This document shows, in pieces, positions 18,245 through 26,719 of a DNA stretch of 64,000 nt. The notes beneath the pieces are model-generated. The model made no database searches. It saw only the letters and a program-made list of their open reading frames with translations, and was not told the origin of the DNA. The number at the start of each line of letters is the position of its first letter. Positions within the stretch are counted from its first letter, which is position 1. The DNA lies in sequence record PV419677.1, one strand, 5' to 3'. Both the position numbers and the translations under genes were made by a program. Source of the DNA: a phage.

Positions 18245-18508
18245 TTACGCTTTACCGCCAGAAACAATACCAAAGGTATCAAAATCCCATTCAATATTGT
18301 CAACATCAACTTTCTTACCAGCAACCACGAATGCGATTTCGCGGCGTTTTGCATAGGTAACAATTTCTTTACCATCGCCGCCAAAGAAAGAATAACCATT
18401 GCGCTTCATGGTGCCAAAGTCTTCAGCATCACCAGCGAAGGCGCGGACTTTAAAAGCACCGGTAGGAGCTTTAGCAGATTCAGTAATAAATTCTTGATAA
18501 GTTTTCAT
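18245..18508 (-). CDS. internal-protein-like (capsid-targeting N-terminus)
   Basis: from MKTYQEFITES: matches the T4 internal-protein N-terminal targeting sequence with an I-T-E cleavage motif. Confidence 0.6.
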   Translation of the reverse strand: MKTYQEFITESAKAPTGAFKVRAFAGDAEDFGTMKRNGYSFFGGDGKEIVTYAKRREIAFVVAGKKVDVDNIEWDFDTFGIVSGGKA

Positions 18509-18556
18509 TTTATATTCCATTGTTTGGTTGATAAAATCATTATACAACCTTTTTAG

Positions 18557-18999: not shown

Positions 19000-19029
19000 A
19001 TTATAACCCTATCATTTGGAGATGTACAC
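19000..19029 (-). promoter_or_regulatory. early promoter with -10 TATAAT inside a perfect inverted repeat
   Basis: gatagggt-tataat-gaccctatc on the minus strand with GTGTAC about 17 bp 5'. Confidence 0.45.
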
Positions 19030-19517
19030 TAATATGCGTCAAAAGTTCCGGTACGGAACGTTTCTATAACTCGTTTGGCTCGGTTCGGAGTCTGGACTTT
19101 ATACCATCTTGAGTCCGCCAGTTCCTTAGCAGCCGCTTCCCATGATTTAGCCTTCAGAAGTCGCATACCCTTAGGAAAACCAGCAACACCAGCAACACCC
19201 ATCTGGAATACCATATTAATGAGTGCACAACGACGAACTTCATCAAGTACATCATAAACAGGTTTTAAGACAGGGTGTCTCAAGATTCCGGCTTTAGCTT
19301 TTTCGACCGAACGATTAAACAATGTTTCAGCTTCGTGTTGGGTTATACGGCCATTACAGACACGACCCATGAGCTTGTCGAGCTCGGCGCGAGCGACATC
19401 TTTAGATGGGTTCTTAGTTATCAGTTGCCCGATACCAATGGTCCAATAGCCTTCAGTATCTTTATACAAATCCAACTTACAACCTTCATCTATGCGTAAC
19501 ATTTCGAATATATTCAT
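19029..19517 (-). CDS. e: lysozyme (endolysin)
   Basis: 162 aa; [37 protein letters not shown] matches T4 lysozyme. Confidence 0.95.
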
Positions 19518-19550
19518 AATACCCCCTTATATAGGGGTATTTATTATCCG
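19518..19550 (-). promoter_or_regulatory. hairpin covering the e ribosome-binding site
   Basis: ccccttatatagggg inverted repeat immediately 5' of the e ATG. Confidence 0.45.
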
Positions 19551-20002
19551 AAAATTTGAGTCATTACCTTGTACATCGATTTACCCATCACATACTGCCA
19601 TTGACTCGGTTTAATCAAAGCAAATGCATCGAACTCTGGAACCGAACTACCATCCGGAAAGGTATGATAGGCAGAGCATTTACTATGTCTGAACTGCTCA
19701 TGCTCGACCGGAACCGTGTACAAAAACAGGTGAAGGTTTTTATTATCTGAATAACGGAACTCACCCAGGTCCTTTAAGAATGCTGGGTCATATTGGGTAA
19801 ACCCAGTTTCTTCTTCGCATTCACGGATAGCAGCTTCAATCGGGGATTCACATGCTTCAACATGACCCTTAGGGATGTCCCATTTGTGCGCAGGCATACC
19901 TGGTTTACGAGAACCGGTAACACGACCCATGAACAACTCTTTATCTTCAGTCATGAAAATAATGCCAGCAGATAATTCTTTCACCTTGTTTTTCTTACTC
20001 AT
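19544..20002 (-). CDS. nudE: Nudix hydrolase
   Basis: Nudix box GHVEACESPIEAAIRECEEETG; ATG at 20002 chosen (152 aa). Confidence 0.8.
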   Translation of the reverse strand: MSKKNKVKELSAGIIFMTEDKELFMGRVTGSRKPGMPAHKWDIPKGHVEACESPIEAAIRECEEETGFTQYDPAFLKDLGEFRYSDNKNLHLFLYTVPVEHEQFRHSKCSAYHTFPDGSSVPEFDAFALIKPSQWQYVMGKSMYKVMTQIFG

Positions 20003-20231
20003 CGTCGCGCTTCCAAGATTTTTTAAAGATTTCGGCCATAATAGTTTCAACGCATGTTTCTGTTGATGGGCTTTCACTATCAGTTATTCGAACCATATAG
20101 TCGGAAATTGGTCGGAACATATCCAAGTCAGTTTCTAAATCATCTTTGATTTTCTCTTCTGATGTACCTGTATCATAGGAATACAGATAAGAATCACACG
20201 ACTCTGATTTAATATAAATTGCAATACTCAT
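19995..20231 (-). CDS. hypothetical acidic protein
   Basis: ORF track, 78 aa. Confidence 0.5.
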   Translation of the reverse strand: MSIAIYIKSESCDSYLYSYDTGTSEEKIKDDLETDLDMFRPISDYMVRITDSESPSTETCVETIMAEIFKKSWKRDDE

Positions 20232-20815
20232 TTACGGCATTCCTCAATAAAAGAGTTCAATGTATTTTTCTTGGCGATATCGTCGTATACCTTTTTAACT
20301 TTAGAAATACGAAAAGGTACTTCAATAACCATAGTCCATAAAAGTGATGCAATAAGTCCAACAGCAGCAGAAGAAACGCACGCGCCCATTACAGCTACAG
20401 GTGCTTCATTTTTACCTGTCAGGAAAAACCACAGGATTGGTAAAAATAAGATTCCAGCCCATGCATAAAATCTGGAACAAATTAACTTATCAAATTCATC
20501 TTTCCAGGTACGAAATCCATATTTCTTGCTATAAGAAATTAATGGGTCTGGTGTCTGTTCTTTGAGTGGTTCTGGTTGATGCCCATTAATGATGTATCCC
20601 ATTTTATATTCCTTAATTAAAAGCTCTTTCATATGACGATTGCATCGCGACCAATCAACATTTTCAACCTTGATTCCTTCATCACCATCATCAAGGTTTG
20701 CCCAATATTTTTTGGTAATCATAAATTCATCTCTTGATACAATTATACCTGCATTTTCTGCCCGCCGGATGAAGTTTACATCAACACCCATACAGCCAGG
20801 TTCATAAAGGGCCAT
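20228..20815 (-). CDS. membrane protein with FIEECRK tail
   Basis: 195 aa; two hydrophobic helices near the C-terminus. Confidence 0.55.
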   Translation of the reverse strand: MALYEPGCMGVDVNFIRRAENAGIIVSRDEFMITKKYWANLDDGDEGIKVENVDWSRCNRHMKELLIKEYKMGYIINGHQPEPLKEQTPDPLISYSKKYGFRTWKDEFDKLICSRFYAWAGILFLPILWFFLTGKNEAPVAVMGACVSSAAVGLIASLLWTMVIEVPFRISKVKKVYDDIAKKNTLNSFIEECRK

Positions 20816-21558
20816 TACCAGCCCTCCATGGGGAATTCCAGATATACTTGAGCATTAACGCGGATTTCATTTGTAATCTTTTTAACACGGTCGGTATTAC
20901 GAGACACACGACCAAACCAGCGCCAGCCGTTACTTACTGCGCGGGAACCTGTATGCCATGTCTGCCAATCAAACTGGAGCAACGTGCGGTCAGGAGCATC
21001 CCACTTAGTTAATTCATTGGACTCAATTTTTTCCAGAACTTCTTTATGCCACTGTCGATAGATAAGTTCACCATCAGGAATCTGACTAAATTGCGCAGTT
21101 CCTGTTGCAAAATAAGTAGGACACACATCAGCGTTAACAAGACCAAGAATATGTTCAGAATGGTAACGAGGATTATCATAATCAGGTTGTCCTGCGGTAA
21201 TAAAGTGTCGACCAACCGGAATATCTGGGCGTGGTACATCATCATGGTGATAACCTGGGATAGCAGGATACCAACCAGGCATCAGCATATGAACCCGGGA
21301 ATCAAATACAACCTGGTCAGTGTTCCAATCATCCGGCAGACTCATGATAAAGCTACGAGTAATAGGACCGCCATTGTCAAAAGCGAAAGCCAATGAGCTG
21401 TTGAAGAACATAGTTTCGTTTTTGATTTTATCATTAGAAATTTTACCAGCGAAACTACCTACTGCATGAGCTTGGGAATTAAAAGTTTTTGGACCGTTCA
21501 TAATATTTTCCTCATTGATTGTGGGACCATTGTGTCGTAGTCCCACTTGGATATACAC
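20815..21558 (-). CDS. hypothetical protein
   Basis: ORF track, 247 aa. Confidence 0.5.
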   Translation of the reverse strand: MYIQVGLRHNGPTINEENIMNGPKTFNSQAHAVGSFAGKISNDKIKNETMFFNSSLAFAFDNGGPITRSFIMSLPDDWNTDQVVFDSRVHMLMPGWYPAIPGYHHDDVPRPDIPVGRHFITAGQPDYDNPRYHSEHILGLVNADVCPTYFATGTAQFSQIPDGELIYRQWHKEVLEKIESNELTKWDAPDRTLLQFDWQTWHTGSRAVSNGWRWFGRVSRNTDRVKKITNEIRVNAQVYLEFPMEGW

Positions 21559-21560
21559 AA

Positions 21561-22541
21561 TTATTTTTCGAAAGGACGAATTAAATGTTGGTTAGCCTTG
21601 AAACGTTTAACATAGTCTTCGTGACCCAGGGTGTTGTACATATTAACCACTTCCTGGTAATGTTCCCAGGCATACTCGCGGAACCATCCAGAAGTAATGG
21701 AGGTACAGACTTTTTCTAGTGCAATATGGAAGCTCACGGATGGAGAAATATTGAACTCATTAGGAACCTGCGAACGCTCCAGAGCAAGTACACATGCTTC
21801 TTCATAAACCCCAGCCAGTTTAATAATCTCAGGGAGTGCTTCAAATTTTTCACGCGAGGTCATAACTTCTGAATTATCCTTCATATAGAACTTATATGCA
21901 GGCTTATCAGCAAGCGCCACGGCCTCGTGGATGGAGTCATGGTCAAGGGTATAGATTGTATCATTAAAGAAAGCTTTCTTATCCACGTCTAGTTTAGGGT
22001 GGCTATATGACAATGTTTCTGCCTGGCGCTGCAGCATGATTTTATGCAGTTCGTCATTAAGAACAACCCCCTTATTGCGAAGGTAATTAATATGACTCAT
22101 GGTCTTCAGGAAGAATGGATTGTTCTTCAGGTAACGATGAGACAATTTAATTGCCAGACAAATATCAGGAGTCGCCCAATAGAAACCAGATAGACGGTCT
22201 TTCTGAATATTTGCCTTCGCATATTTGAGTAAACGATAACTGGAGGTAAAATCTTCCTCTTGTAGCTCATCAGTCAGCTCACGAACACTTGTCAATGCGC
22301 GGACGATGTACGCTTCAAAATAGGTTTCTTTACCATTGTGCATACATTTAAAAGCTTGAACATCTGGGTTATCCACATGCACATGTTGTCCCATCATCTG
22401 GGTTTTAAAGCTATTCCAGGAGCCCTGGTCAGCGATAAAGTCCCAATCAGAGTTTTCAATTTTCTGACTTTCAATCAGACCAGCGTTATGTAATGCACGA
22501 GAACCAATAACTAACATCATAATATTTTCCTCAAATAACAC
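21561..22541 (-). CDS. hypothetical protein, possible nucleotidyltransferase-like N-terminus
   Basis: VIGSRALHNAGLIESQKIENSDWDFIA (GS..DxD-like, atypical spacing). Confidence 0.5.
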   Translation of the reverse strand: MLFEENIMMLVIGSRALHNAGLIESQKIENSDWDFIADQGSWNSFKTQMMGQHVHVDNPDVQAFKCMHNGKETYFEAYIVRALTSVRELTDELQEEDFTSSYRLLKYAKANIQKDRLSGFYWATPDICLAIKLSHRYLKNNPFFLKTMSHINYLRNKGVVLNDELHKIMLQRQAETLSYSHPKLDVDKKAFFNDTIYTLDHDSIHEAVALADKPAYKFYMKDNSEVMTSREKFEALPEIIKLAGVYEEACVLALERSQVPNEFNISPSVSFHIALEKVCTSITSGWFREYAWEHYQEVVNMYNTLGHEDYVKRFKANQHLIRPFEK

Positions 22542-22772
22542 TTAAATTTCAGCAGCAGAGATATTAGATTCATCTATCATCTCAGAGGCGGACCCCTTAA
22601 CGATAGGAACCAATTTGCCATAGAGGTCTTCATTGTAAGGGTCGTTGATACAGTGTGCATCTTCAAAACAAACACCGTAATCAGACTTCTTATAAACGAG
22701 ACCGTAAATCTTTGTAAACTTAGCACGACTAATTTTTACAGGCTCATCAGTCATTGGGGCGTAATACCACAT
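22542..22772 (-). CDS. hypothetical protein
   Basis: ORF track, 76 aa. Confidence 0.5.
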   Translation of the reverse strand: MWYYAPMTDEPVKISRAKFTKIYGLVYKKSDYGVCFEDAHCINDPYNEDLYGKLVPIVKGSASEMIDESNISAAEI

Positions 22773-22875
22773 AATGTTTTCCTCATTAGTTGACGAAATA
22801 ATGATACTACATTTCTTTAGGCTTGTACACTAAATTTCTGCACATAAGTCCTCCTACCACATCCGTGTGGCTAAA

Positions 22876-23103
22876 TTATTTTCCCAACGAAATACGAGTA
22901 GGTTTTTTGCCAAAATATTCTTCATAAGAACCATCTAAACGACCTGCTTTAGACCGACAATATGAATCATACTTTTTATAATAGGTCAACTCGGTATTAT
23001 AACGTGGGTGTCTATCAGCCATAATAATACTTAACGGCCAACCTTTGGCATAATCGCGAAGACCATTTATTTTACGAATGTATCTTTTCTTTAATTTTAG
23101 CAT
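22876..23103 (-). CDS. small basic protein
   Basis: ORF track, 75 aa. Confidence 0.45.
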   Translation of the reverse strand: MLKLKKRYIRKINGLRDYAKGWPLSIIMADRHPRYNTELTYYKKYDSYCRSKAGRLDGSYEEYFGKKPTRISLGK

Positions 23104-23321
23104 GAGCTCGGGTACCAGATTTTACCATCGGAGCGAGCAACGAAGGTACGACCAGCTTCTTCACCATAACAAGAGCTATTCAGCCAATCTTCAAGACGAA
23201 CTTCACCGTCGTAATCATCTAGCTCAACACCAAAATCTTGAGCGTTAGCCATATCTTTTACTTTCTTATACAGCGCAGCCAGTTCAAGAGCTGCTTTTTC
23301 CAATTCATTAATATTAGACAT
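23097..23321 (-). CDS. small acidic protein, W-x-S-S-C tail family, member 1
   Basis: 74 aa; ends GKIWYPSSC. Confidence 0.6.
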   Translation of the reverse strand: MSNINELEKAALELAALYKKVKDMANAQDFGVELDDYDGEVRLEDWLNSSCYGEEAGRTFVARSDGKIWYPSSC

Positions 23322-23330
23322 TTTTATTCC

Positions 23331-23561
23331 TTAGCAAGACATAGAGGAGTTAAACCAGAAACCCTGGCCATCATTGATGCCATAATCACTGCGAATCCAG
23401 TCATATTCTTCATATTCTTCGCTAGAAGCCGGAATATAACGTTGGAAACGGTCTGCGGCGTGTAAATTAAAAATTTCACCGGTTTTATCGGCTAACTGCT
23501 CACCTTCACAGATTAGTGCACGGATTTGGTCTTCAATTTCTTTAACAGTTTTAGTAGTCAT
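23331..23561 (-). CDS. small acidic protein, W-x-S-S-C tail family, member 2
   Basis: 76 aa; ends GFWFNSSMSC. Confidence 0.6.
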   Translation of the reverse strand: MTTKTVKEIEDQIRALICEGEQLADKTGEIFNLHAADRFQRYIPASSEEYEEYDWIRSDYGINDGQGFWFNSSMSC

Positions 23562-23570
23562 TTTATAACC

Positions 23571-23768
23571 TTAGCATTCATAAGAGGAGGACACCCAAGA
23601 GGTACCGCTAATAGTAATACAACCATTATAAAGCGTAATATGTTGTTCCAGATTACGCTGACCGTCAATATAGATATCAGCTTCTTCGCGTTCTTCTTTG
23701 CAAATCTGGATAACGTTTTCAATAGCTGCCGCGGCAGTACGGATTGCACAATCTAATTCACGAGACAT
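23571..23768 (-). CDS. small acidic protein, W-x-S-S-C tail family, member 3
   Basis: from MSRELD; ends TSWVSSSYEC. Confidence 0.6.
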   Translation of the reverse strand: MSRELDCAIRTAAAAIENVIQICKEEREEADIYIDGQRNLEQHITLYNGCITISGTSWVSSSYEC

Positions 23769-23776
23769 ATAATTCC

Positions 23777-24058
23777 TTAACATTCAGAAGAGGAGGACAC
23801 CCAACCGCCATTTTCTAGGTCGGTTGTGTAGTCATGAGTATTAACAATAGCCCATTCAGGATGACCATCTTCTTCCCAATGAGCAAGGTCAGCTTTCAAG
23901 GCGCCAGGAGAATAATAGTCACCGCCCATACCGCGAGCAGGGTATATATTAAAATGAGTCTCATATTTGTCTGCAATTTCCTCAGCACGGCGAATGGCTT
24001 CATGGATTTCTTTTACTGCGGCCAGAAGCTCTGGTTGGTTATGGTTATCATTCATCAT
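23777..24058 (-). CDS. small acidic protein, W-x-S-S-C tail family, member 4
   Basis: from MMNDNH; ends GGWVSSSSEC. Confidence 0.6.
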   Translation of the reverse strand: MMNDNHNQPELLAAVKEIHEAIRRAEEIADKYETHFNIYPARGMGGDYYSPGALKADLAHWEEDGHPEWAIVNTHDYTTDLENGGWVSSSSEC

Positions 24059-24059
24059 A

Positions 24060-24350
24060 TTAGCACACCTCAGAAGAGGAAACCCATGCACCAACAGTAA
24101 CAACACCGTTTTCAACTCGCCCGCCGTTGTTTTCAATATGGTGAGCAAACCATTCAGAACATTCATAACCAACTGGATGATATGTACGGCCGGTGCCATA
24201 ATCGCCAGTGCTGAATTCAATACCGTACTTGTCGGCAATTTCTTCACATTTGGATTCGATGGTGTCTACTTTACTCAACAGGTCATAGATGGCTTTTTCT
24301 GCAGATTTCTCGTCGGTGTATCCAGGGATTTCAATTTCAATTTTATTCAT
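24060..24350 (-). CDS. small acidic protein, W-x-S-S-C tail family, member 5
   Basis: 96 aa; ends GAWVSSSEVC. Confidence 0.6.
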   Translation of the reverse strand: MNKIEIEIPGYTDEKSAEKAIYDLLSKVDTIESKCEEIADKYGIEFSTGDYGTGRTYHPVGYECSEWFAHHIENNGGRVENGVVTVGAWVSSSEVC

Positions 24351-24700
24351 GATTTACATTCCTTAATAAAGGTTTCAAGGTCATTACGTTTTGTTTTGTC
24401 TAGGAACTTATTATACTCAGCCATTGCCAAAGCGTATCTCTTCCGGCTAGGAGCATTCACGGCGTTTGTATGACAGATATCATACACAACAGGGATAAAA
24501 TAAGCCACAACAGCCGGAGCGATTATCATAAAGAACCCCATCTCAATAGGCATGACTCCCTCGATTGCAGCCATAACCGTGGTCATTACCAGACCAACCA
24601 AACCACCGAGCATGGCGGTGACAATTCCCAATAATAAATTGCCGCCAATATCATATTCAGCCAATTGATAAACATGTGATGCAAGACTAGGCCGTTCCAT
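24347..24700 (-). CDS. membrane protein with FIKECKS tail
   Basis: from MERPSL; two hydrophobic helices. Confidence 0.5.
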   Translation of the reverse strand: MERPSLASHVYQLAEYDIGGNLLLGIVTAMLGGLVGLVMTTVMAAIEGVMPIEMGFFMIIAPAVVAYFIPVVYDICHTNAVNAPSRKRYALAMAEYNKFLDKTKRNDLETFIKECKS

Positions 24701-25082
24701 TACGAACCTCCTTAATAAATTCTTCGGCACATTTAATTTTGTGCTCTTCTTGTAGGGAAACACATTTTTGTTCCCACTCTTTAACTCGCCCACGATATCC
24801 TTTATTCATATGATTTTGATGCCACGCATTTATCAATATCATACTCAGGACCGTAATAAAAGGAGCTGCGATTATTAGCGCCCAGGCAACTCCAACACTA
24901 ATGATATCCATATCCCCACAAAGCACCATCATTATAACCCCAACGATGCACATGGACAAAGCTCCAAATGGAGGCATAAGGTCTTTATCAATCTTGTCTG
25001 CGTATACAAATTTTTCTGGTTTACTTGGCAGATATAACGTTCGCATTTTGAACCCCTTTAGCATATTCACGACATTCAGCAA
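24687..25082 (-). CDS. membrane protein with EEFIKEV tail
   Basis: hydrophobic helices; start uncertain (25082 or 25046). Confidence 0.45.
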   Translation of the reverse strand: MLNVVNMLKGFKMRTLYLPSKPEKFVYADKIDKDLMPPFGALSMCIVGVIMMVLCGDMDIISVGVAWALIIAAPFITVLSMILINAWHQNHMNKGYRGRVKEWEQKCVSLQEEHKIKCAEEFIKEVRNGTA

Positions 25083-25593
25083 TAAAACGATTAAGCTTAC
25101 GTTTCCGTTTACGACTCTCTAATGTATACTCAGCCGCCAAATCAAGAAGCTCATCTTTATCATAATTTTTAATATCAGTATAAGCTGGGCGGCGGTCAAC
25201 CATTCCAAATACATCGCCATTCTCTAGCGCCACATAACATACTAAATGGTAATCATCATCGGCCACATTAAGAAGTACGCAATCGTTGCTCTCGTTTAAA
25301 GCATACACTGAATAACGTAGTCCAGCGAATTCTGCTTGTTGGATACTCAGATTTACATCAATAATTTCCAAGGCATCTGCAAAAGAAAGGTCTTCAGCTA
25401 AAGCAAAAATAAAAGGCAATTTTGTAGTATCGCCGCGGCTAGTTGTTCTTCTTAAGAAATCATTGGAATAACCCAGGTCACCACGGATTCTATAAAGAAC
25501 TGTGTTAGTTTCAGTGGCAAGACCGCTCCCACCAAACCAATCTACATTTGATATAAGGTCAGTATATAAGCTCATAATATTCTCCTCTCCCAA
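25021..25593 (-). CDS. hypothetical protein with NRFIAECRE near C-terminus
   Basis: ORF track, 190 aa. Confidence 0.55.
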   Translation of the reverse strand: MGEENIMSLYTDLISNVDWFGGSGLATETNTVLYRIRGDLGYSNDFLRRTTSRGDTTKLPFIFALAEDLSFADALEIIDVNLSIQQAEFAGLRYSVYALNESNDCVLLNVADDDYHLVCYVALENGDVFGMVDRRPAYTDIKNYDKDELLDLAAEYTLESRKRKRKLNRFIAECREYAKGVQNANVISAK

Positions 25594-25617
25594 TTAGGGG
25601 GCAAAGCCCCCTTTATC

Positions 25618-26211
25618 TTACTTAAGTGAATTGATGTATTCTTCAATGTCAGCGGACGTGGTATCCACACCAACCTGTGGGCCTTTGAAGGTTTCAACAC
25701 GCATCAGGGTGTCTTCAATATCAATCTTAGTCAATGCAGCGATTTCAACAACATCATCTGCAGTCGCAATACCCAGGGCAGATACCTTACGGGTTTCGCG
25801 GATGTATTCCAGTTTAACAGCTAGTTCCTGACGAGAATCATCCAGCTCTTTAACTTTCAATTTAATTTCATTACGCATTTCAACATAATCATCGGCCTTC
25901 TTACGAAGTTGTTTAGCAGTGCGGCGATACAGGAGACCCAGTTTAGCATGGACCTGGACATCCGCACCATCAGCAATCAGTTTGCGGATTTCACGCTCTT
26001 TTGAAGCGGCGAGTTGGTCTTTTTCATCGGCCAACGCACGAATGCGTTTTTCTTCATTAACAGACTTAACGTGGGCGGTCTGGAGCTCAGTAATCTTGTC
26101 AATCAGGGTAGAAGCCGCTTGAGTATATTGGTCTTCAATAGACAGGTTTTTTGCCATTGCAGTACCCAGTTTGGAGCGGATGAATTCAACAAGTTTCTTT
26201 AAAGTATTCAT
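25618..26211 (-). CDS. coiled-coil protein (tentatively PspA/IM30-like)
   Basis: 197 aa, heptad-rich charged sequence; similarity to PspA is only an impression. Confidence 0.5.
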
Positions 26212-26685: not shown

Positions 26686-26719
26686 AATATTTTCCTCAAG
26701 GGGCTTTCGCCCCATTCAT

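Follow-up and report, generated by a model that had tools for sequence, protein, structure and literature searches.

The window analysed here, 64,000 nucleotides (nt) of phage DNA (record PV419677.1), contains in its region 20000-25700 four open reading frames (ORFs) whose products carry a similar short tail at or near the C-terminus. Shigella phage fPSFA matches this region with 100% identity; a group of T4-like coliphages does so with 87-95%, among them SP18 (genus Gaprivervirus) with about 90%. By sequence similarity and gene order, the window is that of a T4-like phage, and the four ORFs are its homologs of the T4 early-region genes e.2, e.3, e.4, and e.5. All genes of the region are located on the minus strand, and the order expected for such phages, e.6, e.5, e.4, e.3 ... 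e.2 ... nudE, e, was recovered on this one strand, with nudE/e (19029-20002) and e.6 (25618-26211) bounding e.2 to e.5. The e.2 homolog (20228-20815, 195 amino acids) matches phrog_2203 (E=1.6e-66), the e.3 homolog (24347-24700, 117 amino acids) phrog_2330 (E=6.8e-46), and the e.4 homolog (24687-25046, 119 amino acids from the annotated ATG) phrog_2604 (E=1.4e-44); a TTG start extends the e.4 ORF to 25082. The e.5-like gene (25021-25575, or 25593 as the alternative limit; 184 amino acids) matches phrog_8788 (E=2.5e-111) and, weakly, phrog_2607. In phmmer searches against T4, E-values of 1e-13, 3e-8, and 2e-15 were obtained for e.2, e.3, and e.4, respectively, while the relation of the window e.5 to T4 e.5 is weak (phrog_2607, E=0.004; hhalign, 25 columns, P=1e-5). 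The deposited annotations of fPSFA and SP18 use the names e.2, e.3, e.4, and e.6 at this place and label e.2 as a putative membrane protein.

The genes e.5, e.4, e.3, and the first gene of a tandem array of small acidic proteins (23097-24350, minus strand; phrog_899 and phrog_4882) overlap each other and are probably translated as one unit. The acidic array forms a block between e.3 and e.2, and four further genes (20815-23103) stand between it and e.2. A separation of e.3 and e.2 by 3.5 kb of other genes is also found in RB69 and SP18; in T4, e.5-e.4-e.3-e.2 are contiguous and the e locus contains no acidic genes. The genes e.2 to e.5 are long-known T4 ORFs to which databases assign no function, and they are held there as separate families (PHROGs 2203, 2330, 2604, and 8788/2607). 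Pfam, NCBIfam, and PDB sequence searches with the four proteins gave nothing useful; the newer entries PF26896 and PF26873 were encountered only as precomputed labels on homologs.

The first-pass annotation of this DNA had described four ORFs ending in, or near, a shared FI-x-EC-K/R sequence, three of them with hydrophobic helices ahead of it, and all four were found on the minus strand with the tails as described. The C-termini are NSFIEECRK for e.2, ETFIKECKS for e.3, EEFIKEVRNGTA for e.4 (tail FIKEVRNGTA), and NRFIAECREYAKGVQNANVISAK for e.5, in which the motif lies 16 residues ahead of the stop. The motif itself is encoded at 20234-20251 in e.2 (F-I-E-E-C-R; TTT ATT GAG GAA TGC CGT), at 24353-24370 in e.3 (F-I-K-E-C-K), at 24702-24719 in e.4 (F-I-K-E-V-R), and at 25069-25086 in e.5 (F-I-A-E-C-R; TTT ATT GCT GAA TGT CGT), always on the minus strand. 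Thus, F-I-x-E-[C/V]-[R/K] is located no more than 16 residues from the C-terminus in four out of four ORFs. When the last 26 residues of all 173 ORFs of at least 60 amino acids in the window were searched for FIxE[CV][KR], these four were detected, compared to a mean of 0.0045 and a maximum of one upon residue shuffling, and the tail is therefore a genuine shared feature. No further match to this pattern was present in any real gene of the 64 kb window. A looser pattern, [FYW][IV]xxC[RK], added only thymidine kinase, which is matched in T4 as well. The C-terminus of thymidine kinase (13668 region, minus strand) is YVSLCRKHWLELTS; the protein is unrelated to the tail family. Including the tails from other phages described below, the general form is Φ-x-x-[F/Y/W]-[I/V]-x-x-C-[R/K], with Φ being a hydrophobic residue.

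Since part of the tail overlaps the ribosome-binding site and start of the next gene, the first-pass annotation had cautioned that some of the conservation might be at the nucleotide level. This caveat proved half right. In the window, the overlap is real for three of the four tails. Motif codons 3-4 of e.2 (GAGGAA) provide the following gene with its Shine-Dalgarno sequence, and the ATG of that gene, at 20231, and the stop codon of e.2 overlap (ATGA); the same codons of e.3 (AAGGAA) serve the first acidic gene starting at 24350; and codons 3-5 of e.4 (AAGGAGGT; AAGGAGG) are a near-perfect Shine-Dalgarno sequence for e.3 with its start at 24700. The distance from the Phe codon to the next ATG is 19-20 nt in these three cases. 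The motif of e.5, on the other hand, does not act as a ribosome-binding site; e.4 has its Shine-Dalgarno sequence (AAAGGGG) 28 nt further downstream.

To separate amino acid from nucleotide conservation, 37 tails from nine phages were tabulated codon by codon with the annotated start of the next gene. Position 1 of the motif is F in 32 tails (TTT 24, TTC 8), Y in three, and W in two; position 2 is I (27) or V (10), specified by six codons. At position 5, C is found in 29 tails (TGT 15, TGC 14) and V, I, S, or M in the rest, and at position 6, R is present in 34, with all six Arg codons being used. Residues at positions 3 and 4 vary (K, E, D, A, G, Y, Q, and others). Of the 37 motifs, 25 include the Shine-Dalgarno sequence of the next gene and 12 do not. 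This sequence coincides with positions 3-4 in 12 tails (AAGGAA for Lys-Glu, GAGGAA for Glu-Glu, AAAGGA for Lys-Gly) and with positions 5-7 in 13, which mostly use AGG, AGA, or CGA for Arg, with a G following. In eight tails it is located downstream of the motif, and Arg is then encoded by CGT or CGC in six; in one tail it is upstream, and in three none was found. Among close relatives of the window phage, the codons for F, I, C, and R differ synonymously only (TGT/TGC, CGT/CGC, ATT/ATC), while the x positions differ in amino acid. Conservation accordingly follows amino acids. The mixture of synonymous codons at conserved residues, together with the shifting ribosome-binding site, shows that the tail motif is maintained by selection on the protein. 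The tail is dual-coding, with the ribosome-binding site of the next gene fitted into the free positions, either the x-x codons or the Arg codon. The ribosome-binding site probably explains why this phage prefers Lys/Glu-Glu at positions 3-4.

Three of the four tail proteins, e.2, e.3, and e.4, are predicted from their hydrophobic segments to be small two-helix inner-membrane proteins, in line with the hydrophobic helices described in the first-pass annotation. Each contains two hydrophobic helices, at residues ~116-158 in e.2, ~22-72 in e.3, and ~26-72 in e.4, and none is detectable in e.5. The common layout of the membrane members begins with a short N-terminus and two helices, between which there is a short acidic loop; a Lys/Arg/Glu-rich linker of 20-45 residues then leads to the tail. 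In e.2, a soluble N-terminal domain of ~110 amino acids precedes the two helices (~20342-20470), which are followed by a short basic linker and FIEECRK. In e.3, a two-helix membrane hairpin (~24485-24637) leads to FIKECKS, and in e.4, the two helices (~24831-24971) are followed by a Lys/Arg/Glu-rich linker and the tail. According to the positive-inside rule, both ends of the membrane members are predicted to be cytoplasmic. An AlphaFold2 model of e.3 (13 sequences, mean predicted local distance difference test score, pLDDT, of 68.5) shows a hairpin of helices 18-47 and 52-116; as the second helix is unbroken in this model, the motif is predicted to be at the tip of a long cytoplasmic helix. 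The e.5 product is predicted to be a soluble protein with the same tip.

The shared tail is a short C-terminal amphipathic-helix motif, in which Φ (-3), F (0), I/V (+1), and C/V (+4) are so spaced that they share one face of the helix; the conserved Arg comes next. In whole subfamilies the Cys is replaced by V, I, L, or M, and it should therefore be a small hydrophobic contact residue and not a reactive, redox, or metal-ligand residue. Metal binding or disulfide formation by the Cys was rejected on the same grounds. Nascent-peptide stalling was rejected because the distance from motif to stop varies from 0 to 30 residues, and a prohead-protease or capsid-targeting signal because the Glu is not conserved in the tails of other phages and the motif is C-terminal. 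A homolog of internal head proteins (18245-18547, minus strand) does start with MKTYQEFITE, the capsid-targeting/protease-site consensus of T4 internal proteins (compare T4 ipI, L003); its likeness to the E-F-I-x-E core of the tails was judged coincidental. The idea of a clamp-binding tail was dropped as well, as the tail differs from motifs of the LDFLF type.

The distribution of the tail was determined by comparing the regions from e.6 to e in RB69, Klebsiella phages Roth34, KaAlpha, and phi1_146010, Serratia phage X20, Enterobacter phage Entb_45, Providencia phage PSTRCR127, and two Aeromonas phages. In each of the enterobacterial phages and the Providencia phage, two to six proteins end in the general form of the motif. 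Most of these proteins have one to three membrane helices; soluble carriers are the e.5 types and proteins of 99-161 amino acids in Roth34, KaAlpha, Entb_45, and PSTRCR127. Overall, the tail is common to at least six sequence families without other detectable similarity. In 42 further e.6 loci from IMG/VR, with e.6 identities ranging from 98% to 32%, the ORF next after e.6 bears the motif in 38 of 39 cases, and the strict tail was found in 125 of 632 ORFs within 6 kb downstream of e.6 versus none of 583 upstream. A word-indexed homolog search with e.3 alone yielded nine close relatives; when family alignments were used as queries, each returned 38, exclusively of T4-like phages. Profiles searched exhaustively against 1.84 billion representatives detected 15 clusters, all belonging to these families and all with the tail, and no tail-family cluster outside T4-like phages was found in it.

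In T4 itself, the tails are FVIDCRKIK (e.3), FVKESRCKSQS (e.4), and FVKECREY..., in full FVKECREYVKAITIPSK (e.5), and searching both strands of the 148 kb genome (ORFs of at least 40 amino acids) for the strict motif yielded only e.3, e.5, and tk. T4 e.2 ends before the tail, being truncated inside a membrane helix (L003:2153-2461). Two more losses were seen: in PSTRCR127 (L011:8962-9222) the Arg codon CGA of one tail has become TGA, with the junction DNA downstream still alike, and in a homolog from Klebsiella phage RCIP0102 (P0072) the tail is frameshifted. From these natural losses it follows that the tail is dispensable for phage viability.

Whether the membrane proteins are paralogs, as the first-pass annotation had it, depends on the pair considered. 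Pairwise phmmer searches across the families returned orthologs only and no cross-family match. Profile-profile comparison aligned e.3 and e.4 over 74 columns (P=3e-6) and, after removal of the tails, still over 23 columns (P=5e-4). All other cross-family pairs among e.2, e.3, e.4, a fourth membrane family, and three e.5 subfamilies were aligned over 8-17 tail columns only. These alignments are shallow, with an effective number of sequences (Neff) of about 2, and reversed-sequence controls were far weaker than the real ones. In addition, over the membrane-plus-tail part, e.3 gave a PHROG cross-match to the e.2 family (E=0.002) and e.4 gave one to the family of e.3 (E=0.004). That the membrane proteins arose from each other by tandem duplication is plausible, and by sequence comparison common descent appears demonstrable for e.3 and e.4 only. 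The weak PHROG cross-match and the common architecture are what links e.2, and the soluble e.5 shares just the tail. Among 12 aligned e.5-type proteins from Tevenvirinae genera, Aeromonas phages, and a Klebsiella phage, Met1, F164, and C168 alone are invariant. What unites the families is the tail, and soluble proteins have it too.

The one constant neighbour of the tail genes is e.6, which encodes a coiled-coil protein of 197 amino acids (25618-26211, minus strand) and is located directly upstream of them in every locus examined; tblastn detected it in 1111 phage records. When a profile of e.6 homologs was compared to PDB sequences, Vipp1 chains were the top four matches (E=0.003-0.02), collinear from residues 1-140 versus 1-142, and hhalign of e.6 against residues 1-148 of Vipp1 gave a probability of 74%. 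One of 11 e.6 homologs matches PF04012 (PspA_IM30) with an E-value of 1.9e-4, and the window e.6 itself does not. These results suggest that e.6 may be similar to PspA/Vipp1 (IM30/ESCRT-III superfamily). In the bacterial Psp system, PspC, a small membrane protein, binds PspA through its cytoplasmic C-terminal domain (PMC5596341). The phage locus resembles this arrangement in that a coiled-coil protein with a PspA/Vipp1-like pattern is encoded beside small membrane proteins of ~120 amino acids, the C-terminal helices of which are predicted to be cytoplasmic. It differs in several respects. The tail motif has no identifiable counterpart in PspC, no PspB or PspC homology is detectable in the phage membrane proteins, and the likeness of e.6 is marginal (E about 0.003). 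Moreover, the putative system has several anchors and a soluble carrier and is phage-encoded. By analogy, the phage set may therefore work like the Psp system, which is not to say that it is a member of it.

Taken together, the tail is best explained as a cytoplasmic docking helix shared by soluble and membrane-anchored proteins, with e.6 as candidate partner, a reading to which we assign a probability of about 0.5. The second membrane helix of e.2, e.3, and e.4 would extend as a long charged helix into the cytoplasm, and the motif at its tip would serve as a common docking or oligomerisation helix, through which membrane anchors and soluble protein alike bind one shared partner or interact mutually. 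The first choice for this partner would be e.6, always encoded just upstream, in an arrangement similar to that of the PspC cytoplasmic C-terminal domain on PspA in the host. A number of observations weigh against this interpretation. We infer the partner only by analogy and from the neighbouring genes. PspA/Vipp1 and e.6 are no more than marginally similar, which may reflect coiled-coil bias, other coiled-coil Pfam families scoring alike for single members, and no PspB/PspC homology of e.2, e.3, and e.4 was detected with Pfam and NCBIfam at E-values up to 0.1-1. The compared loci are phylogenetically related, so that the counts overstate independence. The AlphaFold2 model of e.5 (pLDDT 42) is too poor to show exposure of the tail, the Cys is not invariant, with V, I, L, M, or S in e.4-type families, and the tail is lost in T4 e.2 and some natural variants and is hence not essential. 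A more specific, tentative version, for which the odds are clearly lower, is that T4-like phages possess a Psp-like module of their own for membrane maintenance or remodelling, in which e.6 would be the PspA/Vipp1/ESCRT-III-type component and Φ-x-x-F-I-x-x-C-R the adaptor motif. The tails of e.2, e.3, e.4, and variable paralogs would then recruit e.6 to the inner membrane, soluble e.5 could regulate or compete for e.6 via its tail, and anchors might differ in number as phages adapt to the membranes of their hosts or to defences aimed at membranes.

Among other explanations, the tail could be a nucleotide-level junction cassette only, consisting of a U-rich tract, Shine-Dalgarno sequence, spacer, and overlapping stop and start, whose translation is incidental. 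The placement of the Shine-Dalgarno sequence within most motifs, including those of window e.2, e.3, and e.4, would fit, the more so as the distance from the Phe codon to the ATG is then 17-32 nt (17-28 with one exception), and PSTRCR127 has similar junctions (TGY-MGA-GGT-AAA), including the case in which a stop has replaced the Arg codon. However, one reading frame is kept while the ribosome-binding site moves from codons 3-4 to codons 5-7 or downstream, or is absent, and with downstream sites the distance between the Phe codon and the next ATG reaches 126 nt. Every conserved residue shows mixed synonymous codons, it is the x positions bearing the ribosome-binding site that vary in the protein, and in the e.5 family F and C are the sole invariant residues besides Met1 although the next start is distant. 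The longest DNA identity among the window tails is ~11 nt, and a DNA repeat finder did not group the four. PeSL (promoter-early stem-loop) cassettes are known to be shuffled as modules in hyperplastic regions of T4-like genomes (PMC4122927). Like them, the tails are short repeats at gene boundaries in variable regions, and the number of tail genes differs among phages as would be expected for such a region. PeSLs, though, are intergenic promoter-terminator elements (PMC4122927), whereas the tails are coding, conserved in amino acids with synonymous variation, and devoid of promoter or hairpin; no PeSL element was found at the tail junctions of the window. A mere junction cassette, whether maintained because it couples translation or distributed by recombination, is thus barely credible. 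Alternatively, the tail might be what remains of tandem duplication, with a purely intramolecular or homo-oligomeric role such as helix capping or homodimer formation and with neither a common partner nor a link to e.6. The genes are adjacent and co-oriented, e.3 and e.4 are similar in size and in their profiles over 74 columns, the PHROG cross-matches connect e.3 with e.2 and e.4 with e.3, and with 15 clusters among 1.84 billion representatives the family is small and young-looking. Against this stands the occurrence of the same tail on at least six otherwise dissimilar families, several of them soluble. The tail is also the best-conserved part of e.5 across distant genera, and the maintenance of about ten residues while the rest diverges is typical of an interaction motif. 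We therefore regard a mere leftover as possible but doubtful.

The first-pass annotation had suggested another model, according to which membrane and acidic proteins form repeated two-gene pairs, possibly for superinfection exclusion or immunity; such pairs would resemble toxin and antidote. The acidic proteins end in W-x-S-S-x-x-C, more precisely in W-[V/I/L]-S-S-S-x-x-C with the variants SSC, SSMSC, and SSYEC. The family is indeed confined to loci with membrane-tail genes (28 of 36 among the IMG/VR loci versus 0 of 6 without them), e.3 is translationally coupled to the first acidic gene, and both families have a conserved Cys near the C-terminus. Nevertheless, gene orders in the 42 loci, such as S-M-M-a-a-a-a-a-M and similar ones (S, soluble tail protein; M, membrane tail protein; a, acidic protein), are blocks and not pairs, and member numbers of the two families are unequal. 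Eight of the 36 loci and the T4 e locus, in which e.5 to e.2 are contiguous, have membrane genes without acidic genes, and e.5 is tailed without being a membrane protein. Repeated modules of a membrane protein plus a small protein were consequently not borne out, and of the proposed interleaving only the position of tail genes on both sides of the acidic array holds, the layout being blocks with four other genes in addition. T4 Imm and Sp are, like e.2-e.4, small early phage inner-membrane proteins, but they show no sequence similarity to the tail proteins and are encoded at other loci in T4. As no link to Imm, Sp, or exclusion or toxin families was detected in PHROG, Pfam, or NCBIfam, nothing supports a role in exclusion or immunity, and the pair model is unlikely. 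The acidic array is a separate family outside the tail family and provides context only. Finally, the basic C-terminal tail might limit the lifetime of these early proteins as a tag for degradation or quality control by, for instance, FtsH or ClpXP. Many tails do end in basic residues (CRK, CRGKK, VRRK, CRKARK), the tags recognised by ClpX include basic C-terminal peptides, and with membrane proteins it is on a cytoplasmic tail that FtsH begins. Conserved, however, are F, I/V, C, and R rather than the extreme C-terminus, the motif of e.5 proteins is 11-30 residues away from the end with variable sequence beyond, and we know of no degron consensus matching the tails. A degradation tag is accordingly very unlikely.

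The genes e.2-e.8 belong to the numerous T4 early genes still without function after decades, and the present results offer a new approach to them: one protein-level tail joins at least six otherwise unrelated families of small proteins, which appear as a unit and not as orphans. The motif is tied to a defined place, only downstream of e.6, and comes with a candidate partner, e.6, which may be PspA/Vipp1-like. Should the Psp-like version be true, it would represent a phage-encoded membrane-stress or remodelling system, relevant to the way in which T-even phages maintain an energised host membrane in the course of infection, in lysis inhibition, or under attack from membrane-acting defences. 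Independent of this, the locus is a clean example of dual coding, in which a putative interaction motif and the ribosome-binding site of the next gene share nucleotides and codon choice follows the position of the site. In the databases and papers that could be searched, no description was found of the shared tail, its presence on soluble proteins, and its confinement downstream of e.6, nor of its dual coding with the ribosome-binding site and a possibly PspA-like e.6. Literature searches for the function of T4 e.2-e.6 or for phage-encoded PspA returned nothing relevant.

Several additional features were noted in and around the region. The acidic family, with its Ser-rich stretch followed by a terminal Cys, recurs at the same locus in Serratia, Enterobacter, and Klebsiella phages (L006:9832-10125, L008:9711-10028, L009:9249-9829). 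Within the array of the window, a direct repeat of 30 nt with 93% identity (23569-23598 and 23775-23804) covers C-terminal codons, stop, and junction of two acidic-family genes; here, in contrast to the tails of the membrane proteins, the repeat is one of DNA. Four genes that follow intergenic gaps, with starts at 21501, 22520, 22772, and 25575, are served by a genuine start cassette at the nucleotide level, GAGGA(A/G)AATATTATG, present at 21499-21521, 22518-22540, 22770-22792, and 25560-25587. In the 42 nt gap between e.6 and e.5, just upstream of the overlapping group from e.5 to e.3, a GC-rich hairpin, AGGGGGCAAAGCCCCCT, is located at 25596-25612, and a similar one was found at 26700-26713. 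Both may be RNA-stability or terminator-like elements dividing transcription or translation units. Between e.2 and the acidic array, a protein of 326 amino acids (21561-22541, minus strand) is encoded, a homolog of RB69ORF134c with matches to the Pfam families DUF7277 (E=2.7e-27) and DUF7275 (E=9.4e-76); the corresponding gene is annotated as a nucleotidyltransferase in one phage record.

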